Positions 4,324-33,019 of a stretch of 33,019 nt of DNA are shown piece after piece. Within the stretch, counting starts at the first letter, position 1; every line of letters starts with the position of its first letter. Source of the DNA: Sphaeroforma arctica JP610 (taxonomy: Eukaryota); NCBI RefSeq assembly GCF_001186125.1, contig NW_014039859.1, positions 7,244 to 40,262 of the forward strand, given 5' to 3'. The notes beneath the pieces were generated by a model. That model had not been told where the DNA came from and searched no databases. It saw only the letters and a list, made by a program, of their open reading frames with translations. The translations under genes and the position numbers were made by a program.

Positions 4324-6392
4324 ATGGTACGTACACACCCACACAGTTGGGCTTCTTGCATGCGCACAGCAATACACACAGTATCTCGTCGCTCAGTATA
4401 CCCATCGAATGCACAATGAAAGAAGAAACTTAGTAACGCGAAATTCTACACAGTGAAATACACCGAAGATGCAGAGATCTGGACTTCAATACGTATAATT
4501 CGTATGATATAAGAATGTTTTAACAACTTGAAGGAACTATCAGCTCAACAAGCAACGACATGACGACAGCCAATATATTGAAACATTCCAGACAAAGATG
4601 GCACATATCATTGAAACGTCCATCACACCACAAATATTTATGAGTACATATGCATGTACGTATATATCTTATATATATATATATATATATATTCGTATAT
4701 ATCTGTCAATGTTCTCACACATATGCCCTAGTGGTACGAGGAAGAAGGGCATGCAGCACATGTGTCAGAAAAGTGAAGACCGCACGGGTAGTAGCCGATA
4801 TATTTGTATATTGCTTGGCACAGTGTGGTAGCACTCTACGTGATGATAATAACAATATGGTATTCAACCAGGAAATGACAGATGCAAGTAATGGATAGAT
4901 AAGTGTATATTGTATGATGCTTGTTGAGCACATTTTCAACAAAGAATGTATATAATACTAATTTGCGCTCGTAGAGTGGTATGCTATCATAACATCTGTC
5001 GATATATTCACTGATAGATCACATACAAACAAAATTGTACACTCTTATACCTCTGCACTAAGCAATCACACTCGTATGCACATGTAATACACTTCTAATA
5101 TGCACGCTTCTATACACGCATTCGATTAGGCTTCCGCTGCCGAACCCGCCCAGACCAAGGCGAACCCCATGAAGGATCTTCGCGTCCGCAAGCTGTGTGT
5201 GAACATCTGTGTAGGAGAGTCAGGTGATCGTCTGACCCGTGCCGCCAAGGTACTAGAGTCTCTTACCGGACAGGAACCCGTTTTCTCAAAGGCCCGATAC
5301 ACTGTGCGATCTTTCTCTATTCGTCGTAATGAGAAGATTGCCGTGCACGCCACCGTACGTGGACCCAAGGCGGAGGAGATCCTCGAGAAGGGACTTAAGG
5401 TATGTATGGGCAGACATGCGTGTTTACAGGGTGATTTAAGTAGGTGCCTTTATTTGAATAGATGGATTTAATTGTTTGTTAGGGTGTTGCATCTAAATTG
5501 TACATATACACATTGTAAAGAACGCGATTATCGTATAGGAACTGTTTCTACTGTGTACAACGCATACAAGTTTGCTTTTGTGCGTGAATATGGTATGTAT
5601 GTTGATGTACTATGTAAAAACTGCGCACTGCGAGAACGGATCCCAATGATGCATAAAATGTCCATGTGAATGACATCAACTGATTAATTCAGATAACACC
5701 ATCTTTCGGCTGAGAGGAATTCGTTTCGCATATCTATTAATGTACAATCACTTGTTTGGGGCTTTGTACTGCTGTTGTATTTGTGTGGAATATAATATAG
5801 TTCTCTGCCTTGCAATCGAATATGTGTATCTATGTATAAGGTTATAGAATACATTCTTACATAGTATATTGGTATTATATCGAGTGTTCATGTGCAACAA
5901 TGTCTCGTGTCATACAGGTTCTCGAATACGAGTTGAAGAAGAGCAACTTCTCGCAGACCGGTAACTTCGGATTCGGTGTACAAGAACACATTGACTTAGG
6001 AATTAAGTACGATCCCAGTATTGGTATCTACGGTATGGACTTCTTCATTGTTATGGGCCGCCCCGGATATTGCATTGCCAAGCGCAAGCGCAAGAACAAC
6101 AGAGTTGGATACCCTCACCGTTGTACAAAGGAAGAGACCATGAAATGGTTCCAACAGAAGTTCGATGGTATGTCATCTCTTTGCTGTATATTTTGCTTGT
6201 TTTTAAAACTGCATATAACTCAGCTTTATGTCCTCGAATGCTGGGTTAGATCTATCGATGTGTGAAAACCCATCTTATTGTCTATAATGTATCCATATAG
6301 TCATTGTGTAGAATATTGGATGCAATAGCCAATGCTTACAAGTATTTTCTCGCGTTTATTTTCACAATGTAGGAATCATCCTTAACAAGTAG
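4324..6392 (+). CDS. RPL11: 60S ribosomal protein L11 (uL5), 180 aa; exons 4324-4326 (ATG only), 5130-5399, 5918-6167, 6373-6392
   Basis: Spliced translation [44 protein letters not shown]...[45 protein letters not shown]...[13 protein letters not shown]. Introns are GTACGT..TAG, GTATGT..CAG and GTATGT..TAG with compatible phases 0, 0, 1. A pyrimidine-rich tract (4276-4309) precedes the ATG. Confidence 0.97.
5641..5718 (+). ncRNA. Box C/D snoRNA in RPL11 intron 2; predicted guide for 2'-O-methylation of the LSU rRNA adenosine equivalent to yeast Am807 (snR39/snR59, SNORD32/SNORD51 target site)
   Basis: C-box variant ATGATGC (5646-5652), D'-like CTGA (5680-5683), D box CTGA (5710-5713). The D box is directly preceded by CACCATCTTTCGG (5697-5709), the exact complement of the conserved LSU segment CCGAAAGAUGGUG. 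The D+5 rule points to the second A of GAAAG. Confidence 0.85.
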
Positions 6393-7939: not shown

Positions 7940-9050
7940 CTTTTTGAAGCTGCTTTCGACAATACGCCAGAACCTACTGGACTAGGCGAAGATCAATCGG
8001 ATTTAGTACATGTGTGGCGCCATGCACTTAAGGATATTTTCCATCTAATGGATATGTTGCCAGTGTCAAAAATTCATGGTTATCACTGGGAGTTTTAGCA
8101 AGTCTTTCGCGATGCCATTGTTGCAGATAGTGTGGATGATATGAAGAAAGTATCCAAGGGTACTTGAACAGCGAGGAGACACTTAACAATATGTTAGAGG
8201 CCGCAAATACATACGTAGAAAAGTCAGGAGACATATTCCAGGGCCTCGACGAAACAGTACGTAATGTTAGAGGCCGCAAATACATACGTAGAAAGTCAGG
8301 CGACATATTCCAGGGCCTCGACTGCTTCATAAACGTGTGAAGAGGATCTTTGATCCAATGCAGGAATGGCTAATTCGCGTACCGGCGCGACGCTATACAA
8401 TGACAAGGCTAGACAGCAAGCAAAAGTAATACTCGAGCTTAGAAGGCGACTACGTATCCGACCCACTGGATGTGAATTTGTATACGTGTGACAAAGTAGT
8501 CACGGCGGTATCTAGCTGTAGTTGTGTGCTAGAGAATTGAACAATGTAGAATCCGTCATTCATCAGACCTTATCCCTCAGGTTCGGATATACAATTACAA
8601 AAGGTACATTTGTTATCGACTTCATGGCATACATGAGACAACAAATGATACAAACAAGACATAAAACAGTCATTGGATACTTCGAGACTGAATTGGTGGA
8701 TTGGAGAACTGTATCCAAGACTGGATGTCTACGTTGCGACCAACGCAACTTTTGAATTTGCACCTTTGCGACATTTATTTGATGGACGATTCTAAAATCC
8801 AATTGGAGACCAAGCTGGATGATAAACGAACCCCAAAAGACTATGATCATATTTATGTTTATGTAGAGACATGCAAACCGTACAGGAGTAGCTTCTGTTT
8901 GCGCAATTCAGTCGGCAGGCTGAATCTTACAGCTTAGACAGAAGTGAGAAAAATCGTTTAATTATGGCAGAATGGAACAAGCGAGTCGTAGGTAGTACAT
9001 GTCGAGACGACTCGAGCTCAACTATTGATATGCACTGAGCGCATATCAAC
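7940..9050 (+). mobile_element. Degenerate DDE DNA transposase, C-terminal part; likely Dada superfamily (DxxH type)
   Basis: Colinear motifs across stops and frameshifts: LKDIFHLMDMLPVSKIHG..F.QVFRDAI (DxxH at 8033-8044), KVRRHIPGP, TGATLYNDKARQQAKVILEL, YVSDPLDVNLY (8451), CARELNNVESVIHQ (putative catalytic E at 8549-8551), MAEWNKRV (8964). The order matches the fungal/fish family I recall as DPFH...RVRRYIPPP...GYISDPPGV...CxRGTNSVE. The superfamily name is from recall, not a search. Confidence 0.7.
8191..8322 (+). repeat. ~60-bp near-tandem duplication inside the transposase remnant (8191-8250, 8264-8322)
   Basis: atgttagaggccgcaaatacatacgtagaaa(a)gtcagg[a/c]gacatattccagggcctcgac occurs twice, 13 bp apart. 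Confidence 0.9.
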
Positions 9051-9052
9051 GG

Positions 9053-10549
9053 CAGAGTCGCATAGTGATGAATGGCACTTGCATTCGCAATTGAGAGATA
9101 GTGTTGAAGTATATGGTGAAACAACTGAAGATGTGACCTAAAACCGTCAAGCTGGGGTGGCTTTACCAAGCCTCGAGCCAAAGCAAACTAGATACTGGAG
9201 CTGAGTACTTGCCGCTTTCGGCAAACCTGACACAGACAATATTGCAAGACCGGTAGCAATGGAAGTTCAAGAGAAATCAAGGTCAAACCAGCGTTGTCGG
9301 CGCCAGAAGCATTTTCCAATAAACCTGACCCGTACCAATGGAAGTTCAAGAGAAATTATGGCAAAACCAGCGCCGTCGGCGACACCGGACATGCGGACAT
9401 ACATACTGTCCAATATATCTTGATCGGCCAGCTCTACAGCCGAATCCGGAATCGAACAACAGTACACAAATCAAGCAAACTCAATCAAATCAGCAACCAT
9501 AATATGATCAACCAACGAGTAGACAAACCTTCTTCAAAACAACAGCAGAGTCGCATAGTGATGAATGACACTTGCATTTGTAATTGAAAAATAATACTGA
9601 AGTATTCACTTAAATAAATTAAGAGGTGACCAGTGCGCAGGAAAAAATCGACAGGCCGAGGTTGCTGTACCACGATTCGAGTCAAAGCAAATTGCAGCTG
9701 ATACTGGAGCGGAATACTTGCCGCTGCCCTTCGTAAACCTGATACGGACAACATTGCGAGACCAGGAGCAACGAAAGTTCAAGAGATATCAGTCATCCAC
9801 ACCTTACCCACACCTTGCATACTGTCCATCAAATCTTGTTCGGCCCGCTCTACAGCCGAATCCGAAGTCGAACAATTGTACAAAAACCAACTAACTCAAC
9901 AAAATAAGCAATCACATGATTAATCAACGAGTATACAAAATTGCTTCAAACAGCAGCAGAGTCGAATAGTGATTTACGACAGTTGCATTCGCAAGTGAGA
10001 AACGCTAAAATAATTGAAGAGGTGACCAGTTCGAAGGAATAAAATTGTCAACCAACCGGAGGATACTGTATCACGTTTCGAGCCGGAGCAAACTGTAACT
10101 GATACTGGTGCTGACTACTTGCTACCTTTGGTATTCCTGATACAGGCAATATCGCAAGACCAGTATTAATGGAATTTAAGAGAATTTAAGGTCAAGATAG
10201 CGTCGTCCACGTACATACTATCCAATACGTCTTGAACGGCCCGCTCTAAAGCGGAATTTGGAATCGAACAACAGCACATCAAACCAACAAACTCAACAAA
10301 ATCAGCAATCACAACACGATCAATCAACAAGTATTTAAGCCTGATTCAAAACAACAGCAGAGTCGTATAGTGATGTACACTTGCATTCGCAATTGAGAAA
10401 TAATACTGAGGTACCCGCTAAAATAGCTGAAGAGGTGACCAGTACGCAGAAATAAAATCGTCAAGCCAAGGTTACTGTATCATGATCCGAGCCGAAGCTA
10501 ATTGTAGCTGATGCAAGAGCTGAGTGCTTGCTGCCTTTGGCAAACACTG
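9053..10549 (+). repeat. Diverged ~400-bp tandem repeat (~3.5 units), apparently once protein-coding
   Basis: Anchor cagagtcg.atagtgat...cacttgcattcgcaattgaga at 9053, 9546, 9957 and 10358 (periods 493, 411, 401; unit 1 has an internal duplication). Confidence 0.85.
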
Positions 10550-16439: not shown

Positions 16440-17669
16440 ACCCCAAACTCTAAATTGTTACCTAACTTAAGGTGTATGCGGAGGGCAATTGATCTGAGAA
16501 CAAGCTCATCGCTAGCCCATCAATCAATACTTTCAATATCTCATTCTCAAATCATCACATGAATCTGATTTCATTAAGTTTTATTGGCATTTGAGTATAT
16601 ACTAAGTAGGAACTTTCGGGTGAAGGTGACCGATGAGGACATATATACAGCAGAACACTAATAGCGCGATAGATTTTAAGTCTGGAAAGTTGAACGGCCT
16701 GAACTACATCGAAACAAAGTATAAAAAGGTATTTTTAAGTGTGCTTATTTTAAATAGTTTTAAATGAAATACGAGTCGCTAATTTGTGCTATCTAGATGG
16801 AGTAGAATACAAGCTATACATAATTTTCTATACCAGATCAGTTTTGTGAGTTCTACATATATCTAAAGTACGTTGCAGAACCCAGAGCACCCCTGCTATA
16901 TCACTGTAGTATATATTTTGTACATGCAATGTATCTACAATCTACTTGATAGCACAGTTGCACTCTTTTAATACTCCTCATTAATGTTATTCTCTCGTTC
17001 GTGGCTGGCTGAGATAGTAGGGTGAGAATATTTAATGCTCGTAGGTCTCCTTGTATTAAATCTTAGCATAGTGGAATGAGGGCTAGGATTACACACATGT
17101 GCCATTGAATATAGTTAATACTATAGGATAAATAGGATTAGCTGATGGCTCCACGGAACAAATCGTGTATATAGTGCGTAGAATAATTTAGTGATATTGC
17201 TTTGTGTCTGACGTGTTCAGATACCTTTGTACGCATATGTCTCCGTAATGCCTAAAGTATTTGACATTGACAACTATCAATTTGTATCTACTGCACTTAA
17301 GCAACAAATTTCCATGTTGACTGAGGCATACTCGCGTGTATTCACGAGATTCCGCGTTCACTCGCGCAAAATTGCGAGGAATCGCAAAAGCTAGCGAAGC
17401 TAACAAATTCCATCGCCGTCGGCAAACCCCTTTGAAATTGCCACCATGACGATTTACGCTTCACTATATTCTCGTACATCTCGGTGTATCATTCACATGT
17501 TCAAGATAAAGAACATGCTAATTGTTATACTGAAAATCTTCAAGAGTTCAGACATATTCACATAAGTGGTAGTTTACAAGAACATAGTGGACACCCAAGT
17601 ACATTGTTAGGTACTACCGTACCACAACGTGTACAGATTAGAAATTTTCCAAGCACTACAACTTCTCAT

Positions 17670-18890
17670 AAACCCATGTAAACTACTGTACCCTACGATT
17701 TGCTTCCTCATGTCCCGGATGGTTGATCACTGTAGATCCCGCATATATTTCAGGAACTCGAGTGCAGCAACCTGGCAAGCTATAAAATTCAAACAATAAC
17801 GGTGTGCTCCCAAGGATGCTTGCCACATGCCTGTTTGCCATGCTTAAGAACGTATGAGCCGTTCGAGGGATAAGCAGTTGCTTCGCCTGCATCGTGGAAA
17901 GGAGCAATGGGAATCACACACGGCGCCCGTGAATTTAACGGCACACATATTGTTGCGAATGCTTTATCAGCCAATACCTTGCATAGCGCCTTACGTATTG
18001 TGCGCGACAATGGGTTCATCTATGCATTGTATTTATTCCAGTCAAACTTGAAGCCCCCACTCCCCCCCCCCGGTCCGCCTTAAACCACCAGTACTGCCAA
18101 AGTTGCGTGTTGTGGTGAGAGACAAGGGAATCGACATCATTGGATTCGAAATGAGTTTGGACCTGGTCAAAGAAAACCCTAAATACTCAAGCTTCCAGCA
18201 AGATGTACAGAACACAGCCGGGAGGAAAGTATCCGCCATACCCTATGTTTGATAATTTGATTGTAAAATCATATTGTGCAATAATGTGATGCGAACGTTG
18301 CAACATACTATTTAATTTTAACTTTAATGTACATGTTGATTAGCGCCTTGTGATCCGTGTGCACTGTAGAACGCTGTCCGATCAAATGATCATGGAAGTG
18401 AACTAATGCATACGTGAGTGCTTTTAGTTTCTATATAGAGATGGCGTATATTTGCTATTCCTTGTTTTCCCGTCGTTGCCAAAATCATTTGCATTCGTCT
18501 CCAACTCTAGCGTTACCCATTCCACAGGATAATTCACACGGACTGCGGACACAATGCTGTTCTCAGTTAATATTCCGGTTTCCAGCGATCACCAATTGGT
18601 TCCCTGGCTTGAGTCTAGACAACGTCCGTGATAGGGCTACTTTATGTGCAAAGTCGGGTAAATGTGCATGGAAAAGATTTTTTCGGCCCTAATGCGTGTG
18701 GGTGCAATATACATCTGACATCTTGGTATCGGCCAACTACTTATACGCTACTGTTTCTCCTGATCCACGATAATCCACTGAGCATATACCTTCTTTCTCC
18801 GAGTACCATTGTCTCCCTCACGGTAAAGTGACACTTTTTACGTTTGAGATTGAAGTTCTTATCCATTAAGCGCCGAATGACCTCAAAACG
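17670..18890 (-). mobile_element. Highly degenerate Ty3/gypsy pol fragment (RT C-terminus, RNase H, Dam-like MTase, pre-integrase linker); relative of the 20235-23035 element
   Basis: EVIRRLMDKNFNLKRKKCHF, PNFAHKVA, EPIGDRWKPE, LVHFHDHLIGQRSTVHTDHKAL, FESNDVDSLVS, DWNKYNA*MNPLSRTIRKAL..VLADKAFATICVPLNSRAP, PRTAHTF and NHPGHEEANRR are all colinear with the neighbouring copy. Confidence 0.85.
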
Positions 18891-19069
18891 TTTAACGCAT
18901 GTTTCAACGTAAACGGGTTGTGGAAACGTTAGTTTGTTTAAAAAAATCATTAGGCTTTTTTCTGTGAGTATATACGTAAACGCATATGACTAAAAGCGTA
19001 AAACTCATGTGACTGAAAGCATAACGTTTATGAATGTTAACAAAGATTGTTCGCTTCTCGTCTGTCTAT

Positions 19070-19171
19070 GGTGCGGGCGGTTACCATTGTACTATATAAT
19101 GACTCTAATAACAATTTACTGTCCTCTTTCTTCTATCATCACAGGGTTGACCGCGTGCGACACCCCTGTTT
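19070..19171 (-). mobile_element. Candidate PPT + short LTR (19162-19088) + PBS-like sequence
   Basis: Minus strand reads AAACAGGGG|TGTCGCAC...TATAGTACA|A|TGGTAACCGCCCGC. The LTR would be only 75 bp and has no second copy in the window. Confidence 0.35.
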
Positions 19172-19371
19172 GTGACGCCCACCAATAGCGGGTATCAGTG
19201 ACAACTCCTTATTGTTCCTGACCATATCGTAGTATACCATTAAACCTATTTACTCTGGTCTGCTCTTGTTCTTATTGACTTGAAGTGTTATGTATGAGAT
19301 GAGCGTGGTGTGATGTCCTCATGAGCATACTTGAGATGGACACGCTTTCCGTGACTTCGTCACAGCGCCTT

Positions 19372-19522
19372 ACATATTCCGCCTGCTACACCAATAGGGT
19401 TACGCATGTTCTGTCGTCTACGAAATAGTGTCTCAACTGTACCGCCTCCTACGTAACACGTTGCACATGTTCCGCCTGTTGCGTAATAATGTTGTACACG
19501 TTCCGCCGTCTACGTAATAGTG
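19372..19522. repeat. Degenerate ~31-33-bp minisatellite x5
   Basis: Units resembling acatgttccgcc(g)tctacgtaatagtg. Confidence 0.65.
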
Positions 19523-19566
19523 CTACCAATGGTTTCGTTTGGTATGCAACACCACTCCGGGCGACT

Positions 19567-19873
19567 ATGCAACACGCTTGAGGCTGCGGGTTCCTACCGA
19601 CTCTCAAGTCTTCACGCAAAGTTCAATGCGGCGTGTCCTCAGGGTTGCTCACCTCTGAGTAAGAGTCAACAGGTTGCTCGCCTGTACTCTCAGCATCTAA
19701 ATAACCATACGGTCTATTCTGTCGACTGGGTGCCATGCAACACGCTAGTGAGGCTGCGGTTGCTCACCGACTTCAAAGTGCCTATGCAAAGTTCAATGCG
19801 CCGTGTCCTCAGGGTTGCTCGTCACTGAGTTAGAGTCAACAGGGTGCTCGCCTGTACTCTAAGCATATAGATA
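19567..19873. repeat. 168-bp-period tandem duplication in the retrotransposon 3' region
   Basis: atgcaacacgct..gaggctgcg...caaagttcaatgcg.cgtgtcctcagggttgctc...cgcctgtactct.agcat starts at 19567 and 19735. Confidence 0.85.
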
Positions 19874-20234
19874 TACTTGCCACTCACCACCACCGCTCGT
19901 GTTTAGCGACGTATGGCGTCGTGTGTTTGTTTGTTTCTATTTCTGTTATATTAATGTTGCACCTATATTCTTATTAAGCTAGTGTAAGCCCTTATTCGTT
20001 CACGTGTTTGTGTTGTCTTCTCATAGTGTATAGTGCAGCAAATTACTTTTATCATTTCCATGTTCTGTTGTTGTCGAATATGTGTCATGTTTATTTATCG
20101 TACTGTATGCACTATTGTGTCTTCTAATAGTGATCTGTGCAGCTCGTGCATATTATATATTCGAATACAGGTGTCTATTCTATATATAAAATCTTTTAGT
20201 AAAACAATGTTATCCCTCTAACATTTACAATCGG

Positions 20235-23035
20235 TTATACCAGTGTGTTGTCATCACCCATGCATGCAGCAAGGACGCAACCTCGGCCAGACATACCATC
20301 GAGCCAGGCTGCTCTAACCTTGTACCAGGCGTCGTTGTCGTCGACTTTCACGCGTTTGAATCCGTTTGCGATATGCGGGCACGACGTCGAGATCGTCAAA
20401 GGCATGTAGGAGATCCTTCCAACCAACGTACCAAATATTCCGATTGTTGAGTCGCCTCATTGTGACGGTGCGATATGATGTGTCCTCTCTCCATAGAGAT
20501 TTATCAAGTGGTGGTTCCGTAGCCCAATGTACAAGCCGAATAATCTCCACATTCACGGGTCGGTCTCTGAGCTCAGGCGGCTTGCTGCCATCCTTTGCTC
20601 GTAGATGGTAACTCTGATTTTCCCGACTATGAATAACGTACGGACCAAGCAATGGTATCATGGCTTTGGTTGTCGTTCGCTGTGCGAGTATCATGACGAC
20701 GTTCCCCGTCTTAAGTTCAATCAAATCAAATTTGCGCATCTGATCCGTAGCCTCTGCCATGGCTTCAGTATACTTAATTGTTTTCTGATGAAGTTTTGGT
20801 AGGAAAGTCTTCTCTTAATCGTCTAACCTCTTTAACCATGCATCATTCGTGGTAGGAATATGACCAGGTAAGTCATTAGTCATGTTTGCGAACGGGACAA
20901 GTCGTCGACCAAAATAAACGCTGAATGGTGCTGACTTGCGACGTCGTGATATCTGAAGGTTCTGGTATAACATAGTAAACGGTAAACGTTCATCCAACAA
21001 CTCCGGACACCCAACACACAATGCGCGCACACATTTGTGGATTTCTTTATGTCAGCGCTCCGCCGCACCCAACGTCTGCGGGCGGTATAGTTTTGACGTC
21101 TTGTGTATAATGCCCAACGCTCGTGTGATGGGTTTGACAAAATTGTTTACAAATTCAGTACCCTCGTCACACTGAATCTTACGCGGAAATCCATGCTCAC
21201 CAAACACTGACACTAACTCTGCCGCCACTGTCTTTGCATCCTTCGCAGGTATCGCCCGTAGAATAGAGTAGCCCGACGCCACATCAAGCACATGCAAAAT
21301 AAATTTGTTTCCTTTCGTGGATGTGACCGCCATAGGAATGAGATACATTTGTCTGTGATCCCAGGGGTACCGAGCGATAATATTCATTAAAGGATGAACC
21401 CCCTTCTTGATCGTATCGTTGCCCAGGCATGTGTGACATAACTTGCGGACCACTTCTGTGATTGAAAGCATCTGGTACCAGTGATGCCCATCATCCCGCA
21501 TCTGTTGTACTGTAACTGCTGGCGCCGGATGTCCTTGTTCATGAAATTGCCATGTCAACTGTGCACGACGGTTCACTTCCTCGTGCCCTGGATGATTCAT
21601 CACTGTAGCGCCCGCACATATCTCAGGAATTTGTGCAGCGATCTGTCGCGTTCGTTTCGTCATCAACGGCTGTGCCCAATCTTCCTGATAACGTGTACTA
21701 GCGTCTTCACATACAGGTACCTCCAAGCCTAAGTCACACCAAAACGATGGATTGACTTTGTACCCAGATGGAGGGCCAATACTTACCACGATGGTATGCT
21801 CCCGCGGGGTTTTACCACAAGCCTGTAAGCCGTGCTTCGAGAATGTGTGAGCCGTACGTGGGAAAAGTAATGGATCTGCTTGCATCATCGACAGAAGTGA
21901 AGAAGAAACGGAAACCATGGTGCACGTGTGTTCAACGGTAAACATATTGTCGCCGACGCCTTGTCCTGCAACACCATACGCAACACCTTATGTATAAGAC
22001 GCCATGGTGGGCTCACCCATGCGTTGTATTTGCTCCAGTCAAACTTAAACGCCCCGCCATTCTTGTCGTACGACCAGTATTGGCGAAGCTGAGCGTCATG
22101 ACTCGAGGCAAAGGCATCGACACCGTTTGGTCCAAAGTATTTCTGGATCTGGTCCAAGAAATACGGAAACAACTTCCAACATGACGTATAGAACACCGCG
22201 GGGTAGTTGATTACCCTCGTGCCCTCATGAACACGCCTCCACATGTCTGGTAACTTGTTCAGTTCTCCAGGTGGATGTGTAATAGTACAATTGAACTGTG
22301 CAATATATGATGTCATCGTTGCAACATACTATTCAGCTTCAGCTGAGTGTTCATGTATATGAGAGCCTTATGGTCTGCGTGTACAGTAAACCGCTGTCTA
22401 ATGGGATGATCATGAAAGTGAACCAGAGTATAGGAAAGTGCTAATAATTATTTTATCCGAGTTGCATATGTCTGCTATGCCTTGTTGAGAGTCTTTGAGA
22501 AGAACATCAGGTAATGTTTGCGTCCGTCAATCAATTGAAACAATGCGCCACCAATCCCATAGTCGCTTGCATCCGTTTCTAACTCAAGTGGTACACCATC
22601 AACAGGAAAGTTCAACCTGACTGCCGACACGATAGCCTCCTTCATCTGATCCCACGCCAATTGATGTTCTGGCTTCCAACGATCTCCAATGGGCTCCTTT
22701 GACTTAAGTTTAGAAAATGTTCGGAGTGGAGCTACCTTGTGTGCAAAGTTAGGTAGATGATTATGTAGGAAGTTTGGTATTCCTAATGCAGAGGCAATAT
22801 CCCTTTGACATCGTGGGACTGGCCAGTCAATTAAACGTTGCTGTTTCTCATGATCCACGTCAATGCCTTTAGTTCGTATCTTCTTTCTCAGGACTATCAC
22901 CTCTCGCACCGCAAAGTGACATTTCTTCTGATCAAGTTTGAAGTTATTCTCCGTCAGGCGTCGAATGACCTCTTGAACCGTAGCAATGTGCTACTCGTAG
23001 TCGTCCGACGCAATTATTAGGTCATCAACATAGCA
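20235..23035 (-). mobile_element. Ty3/gypsy LTR retrotransposon pol pseudogene: RT - RNase H - Dam-like DNA amino-methyltransferase - integrase (HHCC, DDE, GPY) - chromodomain-like tail
   Basis: YVDD (23021-23032), KLDQKKCHF, LELETDASDYGIGGALFQ, DHKAL, NKLPD; MTase VDAFAS / DW..YNAWVSPPW; H-x3-H...CHTC; GFPRKIQCDEGTEF; PQTLGAAER; GPY (20638-20646); WYVGWKD. RT-RH-IN order is gypsy. Several stops and frameshifts; the first integrase Asp reads Tyr. Confidence 0.93.
21780..22180 (-). pseudogene. DIRS1-type Dam-like N6-adenine (amino) DNA methyltransferase domain within pol
   Basis: FGPNGVDAFASSHDAQLRQYWS (motif I, 22104-22121); AFKFDWSKYNAWVSPPWRLIHKVLRMVLQDKASATICLPLNTRAPWFP (motif IV SPPW, 22002-22013); LLSMMQADPLLFP. 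One frameshift near 21905. Confidence 0.85.
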
Positions 23036-23613
23036 TTGCACGTCCAGTCCCGCAACGGTTTGGCAAAACTGCGCCCGAGAAACACGTTACTTCGTGGCTA
23101 CAAAAGATCGAGCATATGCAGAACGTTGTTTACCCTTGTTTACTCGAGCACAAAAATTGTGTCCTACATAAAACGTATGACCGATGGAATAATACTAAGA
23201 ACATTGTTCAGTTCAAAGTTGGCGATTTTGTTAATATTATAAATCGCAATGCCAACGTTACCAAATTCTCTTCTAAGACAATTGGACATTTTGTTATTTC
23301 CTACCACGAAGAGAAGAGTGATACTTACAAAGTAAATAACATAGATGGTACTAGCGCAACTAATCTAGGCACTCACCGTATCCCTACCTCTGAACTCTCA
23401 TTCGCTCGCTCATTGGATTCTGATGTCCCAGTTATGGAGTCAAAATTCATACATATAATTGACAAAACATCCAAAGACGGATACACTTATTACAAGACCC
23501 GTTTTATGGATGGGACAGTAGCTTGGCTAACCTCCGATGCGTTTCGTAAATCTCGCGACTTTGTAGAAATACGGCCTCCGGTCAGTCTAAAATATCAAGA
23601 TCAATTGAGATAA
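23036..23613 (+). mobile_element. Ty3/gypsy integrase C-terminal fragment with chromodomain-like end
   Basis: SWLQKIEHMQ..., QFKVGDFVNI (SH3-like), KTIGHFVI (GPY/F-like), DTYKV, IIDKTSKDGYTYYKTRFMDGTVAWLTSDAF (chromo-like). It abuts the YVDD of the minus-strand element. Confidence 0.7.
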
Positions 23614-23779
23614 TACATTGGTTTTTATTTGTATTTTAAATAATTTACTACAAGCTCTTTTTCCAATATTTCCAAAGTGTTCTAAATTCACTTTGATGGC
23701 TCCAATAGCCTGAGTATTTGGTATGACTCATCTACTTGGACCTATTTGAGACATTAGTAGATGTAGGATATTATAAACT

Positions 23780-24400
23780 AAATTTTATAATCTCCGAACT
23801 ACTACTTGTAGACTTTGGTCCTCCCGCCAATCTCCAAAATCCAATAAGTCTTTTTCTTTTTTTAACTTTTCTTCAGATGNNNNNNNNNNNNNNNNNNNNG
23901 AGTTTAATATAGTTTGAAACCTAGTAATTTCCATCGAAGTTTACAACTTCCTCTTGTCACGAGATAAACGGAACGAGTTTCCTCAGGTGACTACAAACCC
24001 GGATGGATATGAAATTCCCTATTTGCCACAATTTTCTATGTGGCTAAACTTTCTGATCTGCTTACCAACAGAGCAGAAAATTCTTCGAGCTTACTTACTA
24101 ATGAAGAACAACCATTGGCTATTACCTTACCAAGTAATAAACGTAAGGTGCCTACATCGGAAATGGTTACTGGACCAAATACTAAACGACATAGAATACA
24201 ACATGAGTATTGAACTCGTACATATAGGCACATACTTACTCGATAAGCCTTGACCGAAATCGGTTTACTTTGGTTTTCGCTTTACGAACTAGATCGTACC
24301 AAATTTTATAATCTCTGAACTACTACTTACAGGTTTTGGTCTTCCCGTCAACCTCCAAAATCCAATAAGTCTTTTTCTTTTTTTAACTTTTCTTCAGATG
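23780..24400 (+). repeat. ~100-bp direct repeat (23780-23879, 24301-24400), roughly 90% identical
   Basis: aaattttataatctc.gaactactactt...aatccaataagtctttttctttttttaacttttcttcagatg occurs twice; the first copy ends at the N gap. Confidence 0.85.
23880..23899. other. Assembly gap (20 N)
   Basis: N run. Confidence 1.
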
Positions 24401-25360: not shown

Positions 25361-25465
25361 CTACGAGTGTTATAGTTATAGTCAATAGCCTAGGATGTTA
25401 GTAGTACAAATTCTACGAGTGTTATAGTTATAGTTACTAGCCTAGGATTTTAGTAGTACAAGTTC
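25361..25465. repeat. 52-bp tandem duplication
   Basis: ctacgagtgttatagttatagt.a.tagcctaggat.ttagtagtacaa.tt starts at 25361 and 25413. Confidence 0.9.
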
Positions 25466-25721: not shown

Positions 25722-25849
25722 TAGCCTTCTCGATAGACAGCAGGGATACGAGCCTTTTTTATTTATAATAGATATGTATGTAAATTAGCCTTCTCGATAG
25801 ACAGCAGGGATACGAGCCTTTTTTATTTATAATAGATATGTATGTAAAT
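25722..25849. repeat. Perfect 64-bp tandem duplication
   Basis: tagccttctcgatagacagcagggatacgagccttttttatttataatagatatgtatgtaaat x2. Confidence 0.95.
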
Positions 25850-27372: not shown

Positions 27373-30300
27373 ATACAGAAACGATGAATCCTGAAGACGC
27401 GGTGAGTGTGAAGTGGCACCTGGACGAGTTCAAGCAGAATCTGGTGTCCATCCTGAACGATCCTATGGTAATCGTGTGGCAGATAAAGTGGGTATAGCTG
27501 AGGTGTTTTCAAACCATCCTAAGCCGTAGGTTTTAGTATTTACACTATGTTGTATAGGATTGTGTATGTTATGGGCAGTCGTATCGTCCGGGGTTCAGCT
27601 CACATGACCGGCTTTTTCATGTCTGACAAAAGGCAATGAGTGTGCGTTTACCACCTCTCACTATAGTATTCACAAATAGGCTTATAGTAATCTCAACACT
27701 TTAACGGGGGGTTGATTAAGTCGTGAGTGTGTGTTTACCACCTCTCACTATAGTATTGACAAATAGGCTTGTAGTGGTCTCAACACTTTAACGAGGGGTT
27801 GATTTAGTCGTGAGTAGCAGTCCAAAATACAGAACCAAATGTTATGGCGTGATGATTCAATCCCAAATCCCAGTTTGCGTGAATCATCTGGCACACACAA
27901 ACTACCTTCATCCTCACACAACCCGCTACAATGGCAGAAAATGGCACCAAGAGCATGATGTCTCCCATACGGTCCTCTGTTGTATAAAAATATATTCTTC
28001 TTAACCGTGGCCCACACCTGACTTATAGTAGTCTTCTGGGGGTGGGTGGGATTAATACCTACCATGATGACCACGACTTACAAACACAGTTAGTTCTCTC
28101 ACATAGGCATCTAGGACCGTTACAATGTCCCGCATTCTTTCTATGCCACGATTGAGATATATAAGAAGACACGCGGATGTCTACTACCAAATCCCTTAGC
28201 TGTGGCGCAATCCGCTTCTTCGCATAGAATGATTAGAGCATAAACTGCATTTACAAAACCCATCCCACCTGACTATAAATGGGGGAATCAACCTTGACCA
28301 TGATGGCGTAATCGCTCCATCACAGTACGTACGTAATCGTTCTATAGAGTGACGCAATGACTCTTAAACAGTCCTCGGAGGGAGACAACGATATGTAGTG
28401 CACCAACCTTTGCTGTCATGTCGTATACCTACTTCAGGCCTCCAAAGTAGATAAAGATACCTACTACAACGACTGGGGCTCTGCGTTCGTAAACGAGGTG
28501 TGTCCTCCCTCCGTTCTACCGCCGGTCACCGTACGGGATTTCGACAAGTACTTCGGTAAGATAACAGAGAGAAAGTACCACACCCTCAAGAAGAACCGAC
28601 AGGCCATGAAAGCCGCCACCAAGCTCAGAGAAAAGGAACTCGCCCAAGCCAACGACGCACGGGGCCCGTCGCAGAACGGTGAGTGCGTGGGGATTGCCCA
28701 GTGAGTGGGTGAGAGTGTGGACATGGCGGTGTGAGTCTGCGGCTGTGCGGAAACAGTCGGGCGAGTGTGTACAAGTGAGCGTGTGGGGGTGTTGTATGTA
28801 TAGATAATCGAGTTGGCGGGATTTAGAGCTATCAGACGGACTGAGTATGTGTGAGAAACAAATTGAAAGCCGCCCATGCAAATGAGTTAAAATATACAGC
28901 CGATAGCAGAGAGAGTGAGTGAGTGCGTGCGTGCGAACAATCGATAGGGTGTGGCAGAGATAATCGCGTGGGTCTAAACCAACAGCCAAATGAGCGTGAG
29001 CCTCAATCGAGCGCCTGTGTGTTTCCGCTGAGATGTCGAGTCCTTTGCCCCCCGTCCTCTTCCCTTCTCATTTGGACTCGAAATATTTGGACTCGAAATA
29101 TTTGGACTCGAGCCTGCATGTACTGTTCGCGTGGGTTTGTATGCGTATCTACTTGCTGGTCTGTCAGTGTTTAGGTGGTCGCCGTTGCACTGTGTGTACG
29201 CGTACAACGGTTTGTCTATGAAATAGTACCGAGTCACTCACACGCCCGCACGCTTTGCACGCTATGCACGGCGTCGCACCTGTGCAGATATGAAGTCCAT
29301 CGCCAAGGCTGTCCAGGATGTGCCCAGCATCTTCTTCACCCCAACATTTCACCTGGAGGACTCCCAAACCTTTAAACTGGTCTTCACGCATGCCGGTATG
29401 TGAGGGGATCAAAACTCAAGTGGTATACTATTATACATAGTAGCATGTACACCCAGTGCAAAGTGATAGTAGAGCACTGGTATGTGCTTTTGGGTCTATA
29501 CACGCACACATGCAAACATGTTTAGCGTATATGCATGGCGAGTATCGACTTATCTGTCCGCACACCAGTAAGCAATCGTATCTGGTGGGCGTGGGTGGGT
29601 GTGGTGCTACGGGTAGGTGTGGTGCCACGGGTGATCCTTTCAAACGGAACCGCCTTCATCAGTTCTATGGCTTGTAATTCCAGAACACATACGGCTGCGC
29701 TGCCCTATGCACAGCTCAGTTGCACGTGCTTGATTGGGACTATCGTGACTATTTGAATGTGGTATATACAGTGATGTTCTGAGCGTAGTATGAGTCCGGC
29801 TGGTAGTAGGTTCGGTGGGCTTTGGCTGGCGAAAGTTGGTGAGGCCTGGCAGGTTATTTATAGAATCGAGTTCGATAGTAGTCCACTTCCGCTCCGGATT
29901 GGTAGAGTTCTGTGGGTGGTTCTGTGGGAACTGACTGCGGCTCCTCGGGACGGCCCTCTCAATAATGAGCCGTTCTCAGAATGTAGACAGATTGGTAAAC
30001 ACGTTTTGATATGGACCTCCACGCCCTGTGGTCCATGTGCAGCGCCGTTGCATCGACCAGTACGAATACGCGCCCAAGTACCTGCAGGTTACCAATCATC
30101 GACATAGACGCAGAGCAAGTGTACATAGGCATTCACACACACACATCACGACCCACCTTTTTTATACTTTGTGCCTTTGAGCAGAACCAACTAAGGTATT
30201 TTGGAGGCTGTGTCGACTGCTACTAACGTATGTGCGTGTATGTGCTTTGCCTTCCATATTTGTTATCACTGCTCCAGGGTCAGAAGAGCAGGACTACGAA

Positions 30301-30706: not shown

Positions 30707-33019
30707 ATCACGGATTCTCAACGCGCATGGGGCAGAAGCGCACCCCGCCAAAAGTCTAGGTATAGCTGCACCTCCCCATATGAAGGACCAGACCCTTTAC
30801 TTTCTCTATGAGGGCGGAGATGCCTGTCGCGACGGCAAGTACGAGCGCCAGACATTGCTGACAATGCGATGCGGGCCTACCTTGGTATGTTACAAGGTTT
30901 TTTAGGATTATAAAGTTTAGGGTTTAGAGGTTTCGGGGATTTTTGGTATGTTAGAAGTGCGTTGTGTTGTTGATAGCTAAGATATGCACCTAACGATTGT
31001 CGTTACGTTGGTATGATACACGTTTCATTCATAGCCATAACTATTTTCTCCCATCTCCACCACTTAATTCATAGCCATAGCTATTTTTTCCTAATCTGTG
31101 TGTATGTAGGGTGCGCCAGTATTCCTCCAAGAAACACCCGAGTGCCAATTCCAATTTGAGTGGGTGACGTCAGCCGCGTGCGGTGTTGGGTATGTGAATC
31201 CTTTGCCAGTGATATCACTGTCATATGCATGACACATGTGTATGATGTTGTTGTGGCAGTTCAAGTGTGTGGTGTACATGTGACATGTGTGTGACGTTGT
31301 TGTGGCAGTTCAAGTGTGTGGTGTGCATGACACATGTGTGTGACACGGTGGCAATACGTGTGTGATGTGTATGTGTCATTATCTTGACGTATGACGTTAC
31401 CTGTGTAGGGCTGTGTGTGACATTGCTGTGTATTTGTGGTGACATGTGCCTGCCAAGTGGTTGTCATGTTTGTGACTTCTCTATGGAACACTCACTCTTG
31501 GCATTTGTTTGTGGTATCAAGTACAAGGTTAAACTATGTATTACCCCCTCACTCTACGCCACTCACGCGTCACACAACAAAGCACGTGCCTATGACATCA
31601 ACCGCACCCGTGATATTTCTTTAGTGTTTTATACTGCACACACCCCTTAGTGTTTTATACTGCACACACCCCTTAGTGTTATATACTGCACACACAAGTC
31701 TACACGCATCTGTATATGATCCCAGTTACACCGAACTCTCTCTGTAGTACACACCTCACACACACCGCTCAACATACCCCCCCCCCCCTCCACACCCACA
31801 ACACACACAACACACACACACAACACACACACAACACACACACAACACACCCACACCCACCAGCTTTGCACCGGACCCCGAGGCGTGTGTGGCCTACGAC
31901 GCAACCAATGAGATCGAGTACGATCTATCAGATCTCAGGATCGATTTGCCATGGACAACCACGTACGGCGACAGAGGCGGCGGAGGTACTTTCACGTACA
32001 GTCTGAGTGTGTGCCAACCCCTGCCGTCGAGTGTTGCATGTGTGGCGCAGGACCCAGGAGGGCCAGGGGCGAAGATAGGCGCATGCCTGGTGCAGAATTT
32101 TATCGGTATGAGTTGGAGTGTGTGTGTGTGTGTATATATTGGTTGGGTTTGTGTGGGTATATCGGGACGCACATATAGGTATTATACATATATGTATATA
32201 TATATATATATATATGCCTTGTTGGCAGCCTTGGGTAGTAGCATGTTTATGTGTCCTCGCTAATATGGATAGCTTTTTCAATAACTTCGATTTTAGTGAC
32301 ATACTCATGCATTTATTAGAATATATAAACTTGAAATAAAGCCACCCTTAAATGAATGTCCAACCATATAAACCTGATAACATACGCATACTGTTGTATA
32401 CGTCTCACTGCATGCGATACTGCACCTGGTTATGTGTTTCTCTCGACTGTGCTGTGTGTACCAGTTCGTAAAAGTATAGAACACCGGACAGCTGCACCCA
32501 GTGTACATTCACCTATTAGTTTTTTGAACTTTTAAGGTTTGTAGTTTTTAAAACCCTTCCTGTCGGTCTGTCCAGCTATGTAGCACCTAAACCCCTTTGC
32601 ATACACTTAATCCCCTCTTTCGCACCCCTTCTACTCTGAAGTATGTAGATACGTATGTCAATGTCATGACGCAAGGCAGCCGCTTGACATATCCTCTCTG
32701 TGTTCCTATTACCACTGCATCATTACACTCTATAGGCACACCAAACAAGTACCCATTGCATTTTCTCTCTATTTTTTTCATCCGTTCACACATATTCCTT
32801 AAACCTACACCCACATATTTCTTTCACCCATACCCACAGCCTCGCAAGGGGTGGTAAGCGAAGCCTATAATATCGGAGACTACACAGATAGCGTACGCCC
32901 CACAGTACATGAGGGTGTACTGTCACTGCAGTACCAGTCCGACCATAGGTGCCCTGCACCCATCCGCCATTCATCTGATGCACCTGTGTCTTCATACCTG
33001 GCAAAGGTTTATATTCAGG
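30707..33019 (+). CDS. Cation-independent mannose-6-phosphate receptor-like protein (tandem MRH/CIMR repeats), partial; exons 30707-30884, 31110-31189, 31864-32105, 32840-window end
   Basis: SLG...LYFLYEGGDACRDGKYERQTLLTMRCGPTL-GAPVFLQETPECQFQFEWVTSAAC ends one MRH repeat. ACVAYDATNEIEYDLSDL..W...TYSLSVCQPL...C...GACL...AYNIG...GVLSLQY....C is the next. Intron phases 0, 2, 1 are compatible. Confidence 0.88.
31220..31450. repeat. TG-rich degenerate minisatellite in an intron
   Basis: Repeated gacacatgtgtgtgac / gttgttgtggcagttcaagtgtgtggtgt units. Confidence 0.7.
31621..31695. repeat. 26-bp tandem repeat (TTAGTGTTTTATACTGCACACACCCC) x ~3
   Basis: Read directly. Confidence 0.9.

Follow-up and report, generated by a model that had tools for sequence, protein, structure and literature searches.

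Introduction

DAM domains have been reported in Ty3/gypsy elements, with at least four transfers from DIRS elements (Fernandez-Moreno et al., bioRxiv 10.64898/2026.05.21.726589), and it is from this preprint that the DIRS-to-LTR direction of methyltransferase (MTase) capture is taken. One of the groups that it describes, the "Ichthyosporean DAM-LTR lineage", occurs in Pirum gemmata, in Abeoforma whisleri and in Sphaeroforma arctica, and is characterized there as lacking chromodomains at an HMM cutoff of 1e-5. DAM-LTRs exceed other LTRs in 6mA and in expression, both in S. arctica and in Abeoforma; AMT1 is found in 9 of the 13 DAM-LTR species, and in the model that the preprint proposes, RNA-DNA intermediates are methylated first and AMT1 maintains the mark afterwards. 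Further, the same study reports that eukaryotic DAMs brought no gain of 6mA in dam-minus E. coli, and that the retroelement domain aligns to only a part of prokaryotic Dam, without part of the target-recognition region. PCIF1 is not mentioned in the main text of the preprint.

Iyer et al. (PMC4738411) place the DIRS1 MTases in a PCIF1 clade and judge all of them likely to be inactive. According to PMC8931429, PCIF1 is an RNA m6Am enzyme that methylates capped as well as uncapped RNA. PMC12695648 suggests that AMT1 binds hemimethylated ApT, and PMC6338049 assigns DAM to DIRS and cytosine MTases to both groups. With the preprint (May 2026), the architecture described below is already known in kind and in S. 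arctica, and the possibility, which a previous sequence-only reading of this DNA could not confirm, that it was undescribed falls away.

Results

The DNA analysed here, referred to throughout as the window, is a stretch of 33,019 nucleotides from S. arctica. Six-frame translation and a listing of its open reading frames revealed, on the minus strand from 23074 to 20317, the C-terminal half of an RT, RNase H (RH), a Dam domain, an HHCC/rve/GPY integrase (IN) and a chromodomain remnant. This stretch is almost certainly a dead, 5'-truncated copy of an S. arctica Ty3/gypsy retrotransposon with an MTase between RNase H and integrase; the architecture and the host are both observed directly. The features of the locus are as follows.

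22679..23074, minus strand: gypsy-type RT, C-terminal half, 5'-truncated; YVDD at 23032-23021; stop at 22993; 46% to P0018 354-611; best PDB hits are Ty3 RT, 4ol8 and 7q5b
22233..22678, minus strand: connection/RNase H; RT_RNaseH_2 match at E 5.9e-16; stops at 22477 and 22450; frameshift near 22310; the NKLPDMWRR end lies in the MTase frame
21781..22181, minus strand: Dam-family (PF05869) amino-MTase domain; VDAFAS (motif I-like) at 22121-22104; SPPW (motif IV) at 22013-22002; frameshift near 21890; conserved tail at 21882-21781
21570..21780, minus strand: linker joining MTase to integrase, read in the frame of the latter
20500..21569, minus strand: integrase; HHCC at 21543-21427; rve core with the second Asp and the Glu kept; GPY at 20646-20638; stops at 21054 and 20817; 51% to P0151
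20317..20494, minus strand: chromodomain remnant at the pol C-terminus, in two frames (20494-20405, then 20403-20332)
19000..20313, minus strand: repeated 3' non-coding part (3' UTR, possibly LTR); 31-nt tandem repeats at 19408-19519; repeat pair 19567-19703/19735-19873; purine tract at 19134
17685..18950, minus strand: a second copy, older and further decayed, with RT-end, RH, MTase and linker in the order of the main copy and 65-77% nucleotide identity to it
23084..23613, plus strand: piece of another element, one of very high copy number, with a weak likeness to an integrase C-terminus (P0151, E 1.4e-8, 24%), abutting the truncated 5' end

We call the copy dead because of the stops in RT/RH and integrase, because of frameshifts in late RH, in the C-terminal part of the MTase and around the chromodomain, and because the first Asp of the DDE triad of its relatives is Tyr in the window integrase. 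It is 5'-truncated because the protease and the N-terminal half of the RT of P0018, the closest intact relative, have no match anywhere in the window. The Ty3/gypsy order RT-RH-IN is nonetheless present with HHCC, the DDE core and GPY, the first catalytic Asp being substituted in this copy. Of the HHCC/DDE/GPY integrase that the sequence-only reading had named, HHCC, the rve core (E 1.5e-8) and GPY were thus recovered, whereas the DDE triad is broken at its first residue and GPY lies further downstream than that reading had carried the element. The purine tract at 19134 was considered as a PPT and rejected, there being no TG after it. No tRNA genes were found in the window. Dinucleotide counts gave no CpG signature, and ApT is not enriched in the element (o/e 1.08 vs 1.03-1.05 in the flanks). 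Elsewhere in the window, the exon at 28402-28704 matches S. arctica SARC_08114 over 80% of its length, with 100% identity.

The MTase motifs previously pointed out, and their in-frame position after the end of RNase H, were all found again on the minus strand: the open frame 22328-21888 holds NKLPD (the RNase H end, 22259-22245), VDAFAS, DWSKYNAWVSPPW, RLIHKVL and ATICLP...APWFP. Pfam Dam (PF05869) matches this ORF at E 1.7e-6 and 28.3 bits, where the cutoff is 28.1, and the Dam-like assignment therefore stands. TIGR01712 matches it at E 3.2e-4, far under the TIGR01712 cutoff, and phage DNA MTase profiles (PF05869, TIGR01712 and phrog_111) are the ones favoured in sequence profile searches. 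The domain is compact, at about 140 aa; it extends ~35 aa beyond the frameshift, and a linker of ~70 aa precedes HHCC. At E<=1e-3, 1272 proteins match the MTase ORF. Motif I D-x-F is almost invariant, and the named MTase relatives nearest to the window are S. arctica SARC_12577 (76%) and SARC_07150 (48%), together with three Abeoforma whisleri proteins. A word-based search, which is weak, found no longer relatives of the MTase ORF among 20 candidates; a scan of metagenome with P0001 gave 1 weak locus among 32 candidates, which was left aside, and a scan of viral contigs with P0018 gave 0/8.

Presence of the domain across the family was observed directly. Among the best 150 of the 1272 MTase hits, 12 combine the MTase with rve in a single protein and a further 2 have a gypsy-type RNase H; 47 have an RT without a strong gypsy RH (DIRS-like), 1 has a tyrosine recombinase, and the remaining 88 consist of Dam alone or are fragments. 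The 1288-aa P0018 (protease-RT-RH-Dam-IN) runs collinear with window positions 23074 to 20329 (E 1e-147), and a protease is found in the intact relatives P0018 and P0022. The best PDB sequence match of the window RT is Ty3 RT. In an RT-RH tree made by a quick method without Dam-less gypsy references (55 rows: 12 LTR-type plus the window and 42 DIRS-like; 3 dropped), the window belongs to the LTR-type clade (100 SH-aLRT) as sister to P0018 (95) and apart from the 42 DIRS-like rows. Similarly, an integrase tree of 15 rows joins the window to P0151 (100/99) and then to P0018 (89/90). A tree of the whole MTase domain (44 rows: 14 LTR-type, 27 of 46 DIRS-like, 2 others and the window) puts the window and SARC_07150 (100/99) inside a clade of 13 rows, together with the three Abeoforma proteins and LTR polyproteins (99/94); the clade with Abeoforma has 95/87 in another tree and is unresolved with the 100-aa core alone, from which 7 rows were dropped for having no parsable motif. 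The trees are unrooted and say nothing on the direction of MTase capture. In contigs from four sequencing runs, summed depth over the MTase is ~21-70x that of the 17000-17467 stretch and over the integrase a similar 24-45x, depth not being copy number; one diverged contig from these runs is collinear with linker, MTase and RH.

Comparison of the two window copies indicated that the MTase is clearly under purifying selection at the protein level. Mismatches in the MTase are distributed 19/23/46 of 98 by codon position, and dN/dS is 0.13 for the MTase (pN/pS 0.29, bootstrap CI 0.19-0.43, 95 codons) and 0.17 for RT/RH-N (127 codons), values that are rough because dS between the copies is near saturation. 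It is scarcely credible that the MTase represents a DIRS fragment nested there by chance, or that RT and integrase come from separate elements. Frameshifts do flank the MTase core on both sides, and the copy adjoins another element at 23084. However, the RT-RH lies in the LTR-type clade beside P0018, the integrase also groups with P0151 and P0018, the MTase belongs to an LTR-only clade, intact polyproteins have the same domain order, a tblastn search with one query (the YR of P0133) gave no tyrosine recombinase match in the window, and the second window copy shows the same order and purifying selection; the intact collinear relatives rule out a nested fragment. With the separate RT, integrase and MTase trees and the dN/dS on the domain, which the sequence-only reading had called for, its proposal of a gypsy lineage with a DIRS-related MTase inside pol is borne out. 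Overall, the sequences support the view that the MTase is an integral pol domain of this gypsy lineage and, by its apparent kinship, a DIRS-related amino-MTase.

SPP(Y/W) at motif IV is typical of N4C-MTases, and the SPPW of the main copy had raised the idea that the enzyme makes N4-methylcytosine (4mC). In the 15 LTR-type relatives, motif IV reads NPPW in 12, NPPF in 1, HPPW in 1, RPPW in 1 and SPPW in none; in the 45 DIRS-like relatives it reads NPP(W/F) in 30, the remainder showing FPPF, HPPF, another sequence or no motif. In the older window copy, the first position of the motif is Asn. Because 13 of the 15 LTR-type relatives have NPP(W/F) and the older copy has Asn, SPPW in the main copy is probably decay from NPPW, and the earlier 4mC inference is therefore without basis. 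A 4mC product could draw on the SPPW of one of the surveyed MTase hits (P0052) as well as on the usual form of the N4C-MTase motif, but it is highly improbable, given that Ser is found in 0/15 LTR-type relatives and that the main copy bears many further decay mutations. The N4-cytosine MTase class was rejected, since SPP(Y/W) is not conserved in the LTR-type relatives, whose motifs are, by direct observation, intact.

The chromodomain remnant at the integrase end was absent from the sequence-only reading. PF00385 matches the pol-tail piece 20494-20405 at E 0.013, the match of the tail to that of P0151 outscores every one of 5000 shuffles, and a leave-one-out clade profile scores it at 24.0 bits. 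In clade relatives, all Pfam Chromo scores are weaker than 1e-5 (E 4e-5 for P0151, 6e-4 for P0160, 1e-3 for P0157, 0.014 for P0010, 0.055 for P0012 and 0.082 for P0021), and no Pfam Chromo match is listed for P0022, P0018, P0007 and P0015. Alignment of 10 clade tails with 5 outside chromodomains gave a probability of 98% (E 1.9e-13), for tails chosen by eye and by a first profile, a choice that favours a match. Leave-one-out chromodomain scores are 24-54 bits in 8 of the 10 tails, 13.3 in the truncated P0007 and 4.7 in P0018, and the Abeoforma P0022 tail scores 21.5 bits against the outside chromodomain profile alone. The weak P0018 and P0007 scores count against a fully uniform chromodomain in the clade. 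On these profile comparisons, the window copy and most clade members carry what appears to be a divergent chromodomain-like tail under the Pfam threshold. Whether the tail of the window subfamily binds histones is uncertain because, judged by chromodomain motifs, its aromatic cage looks incomplete. The absence of chromodomains given for the ichthyosporean lineage would thus not hold for these tails, which questions its description and not the placement of the window copy, because a named member, Abeoforma P0022, also departs from it.

We next consider the predicted fold. AlphaFold models of the truncated MTase of the window (pLDDT 86.5) and of a complete relative, P0003 (pLDDT 92.1), directly recover a methyltransferase fold, their matches being SAM-dependent methyltransferases (the top ones, for the window model). 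In VIA-align, PCIF1/CAPAM comes first for the window model (Z 7.7 vs 6.5 for T4 Dam) and for the P0003 model (Z 10.2, rmsd 3.0, 133 aligned). With P0003, DIMT1 follows at 9.7, KsgA at 9.3, M.TaqI at 8.1, T4 Dam at 7.8 and E. coli Dam at 7.6; PCIF1 is within 1 Z unit of DIMT1, PH1948, KsgA and ErmE, and the top 15 rows are RNA methyltransferases. In Foldseek, the window model has PCIF1 at the top (E 0.08-0.16) and the P0003 model KsgA/DIMT1 (E 0.001-0.003), PCIF1 being absent from the 50 ranks listed for the latter; neither model has a Foldseek match at E<=0.001. A profile search of PDB sequences with the MTase gave no methyltransferase and did not reach PCIF1. On the models, T4 Dam appears to be a poorer match to the fold than PCIF1 and RNA adenine methyltransferases, which makes an RNA or hybrid substrate possible. 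A shared fold by itself fixes neither substrate nor function.

Discussion

Our best explanation is that the locus is a dead Ty3/gypsy copy whose intact relatives use their MTase to put 6mA on their own cDNA, which AMT1 then maintains; taken as a whole, we regard this account as about evenly balanced between right and wrong. During reverse transcription in intact relatives, the MTase would place N6-methyladenine on the cDNA of the element itself, either single-stranded or paired with RNA. Brought into the particle together with pol, it would meet single-stranded or hybrid nucleic acid beside RT/RH, and the substrate would be handed over by these neighbours rather than being free duplex DNA, a hand-over that would fit a compact domain lacking part of the prokaryotic Dam target-recognition region. 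After integration, host AMT1 would maintain 6mA, so that the new copy stays transcribed, and the divergent C-terminal chromodomain may add integration targeting. Within this mechanism we infer that the enzyme is likely to be active, that nascent cDNA is its likely substrate and that a hand-off to AMT1 is likely. Such self-methylation would agree with the preprint's model and with the 6mA enrichment over S. arctica DAM-LTRs, catalysis being predicted. Against methylation of cDNA stand the negative E. coli assay, the view of Iyer et al. that such domains are inactive, RNA methyltransferases as the best structural matches and the lack of ApT enrichment in the element; moreover, the 6mA enrichment could be a consequence of transcription and not its cause. 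For the mechanism alone, that is, 6mA seeded on single-stranded or hybrid cDNA and kept by AMT1, we would put the chances at even or slightly below.

An active PCIF1-like RNA MTase might mark the element's RNA, at its 5' end or cap or at an internal adenosine, or the tRNA primer, with benefits in translation, packaging or escape from RNA surveillance, and genomic 6mA would then be a by-product of transcription. We consider this unlikely, although PCIF1/CAPAM is the top VIA-align match for both models (Z 7.7 and Z 10.2), KsgA/DIMT1 lead the Foldseek ranking of the complete domain, the top 15 VIA-align rows are all RNA methyltransferases, and such an enzyme would account for the negative E. coli DNA assay; DIRS1 MTases sit in the PCIF1 clade (PMC4738411) and PCIF1 acts on capped and uncapped RNA (PMC8931429). 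These points are offset by top Z values tied within 1, by weak Foldseek E-values (0.001-0.16) with PCIF1 outside the 50 P0003 ranks listed, by sequence profiles that favour phage DNA MTases (PF05869, TIGR01712, phrog_111), by a profile search of PDB sequences that missed PCIF1, and by the fact that a common fold proves no function. The domain might instead be a catalytically silent SAM- or nucleic-acid-binding scaffold that serves the polyprotein or particle structurally. The inactivity ascribed to DIRS1 MTases in PMC4738411, the E. coli result of the preprint and a motif IV that varies in DIRS-like relatives (NPP(W/F) in 30/45) would suit this, but the retention of NPP(W/F) in 13/15 LTR-type relatives and the almost invariant D-x-F of motif I make it doubtful. 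A PCIF1-like enzyme working on the element's RNA or RNA:DNA intermediate in the particle, combined with the overlooked chromodomain, would amount to a writer-plus-reader retrotransposon in an animal relative, in which a writer acting on RNA would explain the failed DNA assays; we offer this tentatively and think it improbable. We retain seeding of 6mA on cDNA, with maintenance by AMT1, as the preferred reading.

The locus carries little weight as a discovery, because the architecture and the species are already in a preprint and the copy is dead. What is added here is direct evidence of purifying selection on the MTase in an LTR context, removal of the 4mC lead and a corrected description in place of "no chromodomain". 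Intact natural NPPW polyproteins suitable for assay are at hand (P0018, P0022 and P0157), and the PCIF1 kinship makes RNA, capped RNA and hybrids relevant substrates alongside DNA. As S. arctica is cultured and a 6mA map of it exists (bioRxiv 10.64898/2026.05.21.726589; Nanopore data of that preprint under GSE331346), a functional test is feasible.

Among known systems, T4 and E. coli Dam share with the domain the SAM-dependent fold and an amino-MTase motif IV, but give lower Z values (7.8 and 7.6), and the retroelement domain aligns to only a part of prokaryotic Dam. PCIF1/CAPAM is the top structural match and, according to Iyer et al. (PMC4738411), belongs to the clade of DIRS1 MTases; the likeness is one of fold, at 13-22% identity, and PCIF1 is described there as a much larger, WW-fused cellular protein. 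DIRS1-type elements (RT-RH-MT plus YR) likewise have a PF05869 domain right after RNase H, but according to PMC3783388 they have a YR and lack a protease and DDE integrase, unlike the window, with its gypsy RT-RH, its DDE integrase and no YR match. Assignment of the window copy to the DIRS1-type YR elements was rejected, as rve is present and tblastn with the P0133 YR gave no match.

The Chlorophyta DAM-chromovirus-like and Chloro-Ochrophyta DAM-LTR clades also have Dam between RT/RH and integrase, the first with a chromodomain, but they are separate captures according to the preprint; relatives with a strong chromodomain (P0008, P0028, P0120 and P0016) fall outside the MTase clade of the window. 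The Ichthyosporean DAM-LTR lineage differs in that the preprint gives it no chromodomain, whereas the window copy and most clade members appear to have a chromodomain-like tail. It has in common with the window a grouping of the MTase with the three Abeoforma proteins (99/94), and also the host species, a gypsy RT-RH, the absence of a tyrosine recombinase, a DDE integrase and a Dam domain in pol.

Second copy and repeats around the main DAM-LTR copy

The decayed DAM-LTR pol copy lies among further repeats and host genes, as follows.

5130-6265 (+), ribosomal protein L11 (uL5) gene, with intron
9040-10470, direct-repeat block made up of three to four degenerate units, each ~400-500 nt
17685-18950 (-), second RT-RH-MTase copy
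19408-19873, tandem repeats with a 31-nt unit, plus two copies of a 137-nt repeat
23084-23945, fragment of a very high-copy element
23880-23899, assembly gap inside that fragment
25361-25465, two-copy tandem duplication, 52 nt
25722-25849, two-copy tandem duplication, 64 nt
27637-27810, two-copy tandem duplication, 87 nt
28402-28704 (+), SARC_08114 exon
31751-32263 (+), frame matching the mannose-6-phosphate receptor repeat (PF00878, E 7.2e-5)

The second copy, which belongs to the same family as the main copy but is older and decayed, adjoins the latter directly, and both are truncated near the same RT point. The repeats at 19408-19873 occupy the 3' region of the main copy, and their length differs between element copies. 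The high-copy fragment, which abuts the truncated 5' end of the main copy, showed a contig depth ~1000-10000x that of the single-copy stretch (from sequencing runs, and not a copy number), and a + strand ORF within it bears a weak likeness to an integrase C-terminus. Because loose ends are numerous at 23562 and 23945, these positions are suggested to be element boundaries. The reading frames of the 9040-10470 block are riddled with stops, and the SARC_08114 exon had no match in the Pfam profile search.

Breadth of the MTase clade

In the MTase tree, the polyproteins P0001, P0005/P0157, P0010, P0012, P0015, P0018 (an intact collinear relative), and P0021, matched in MTase searches and drawn from ENA, JGI, NCBI, and Logan, fell into one clade with the elements from Abeoforma and Sphaeroforma. 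Because these database polyproteins share that clade, the DAM-LTR lineage may extend beyond the three species of the preprint that names it (bioRxiv 10.64898/2026.05.21.726589).
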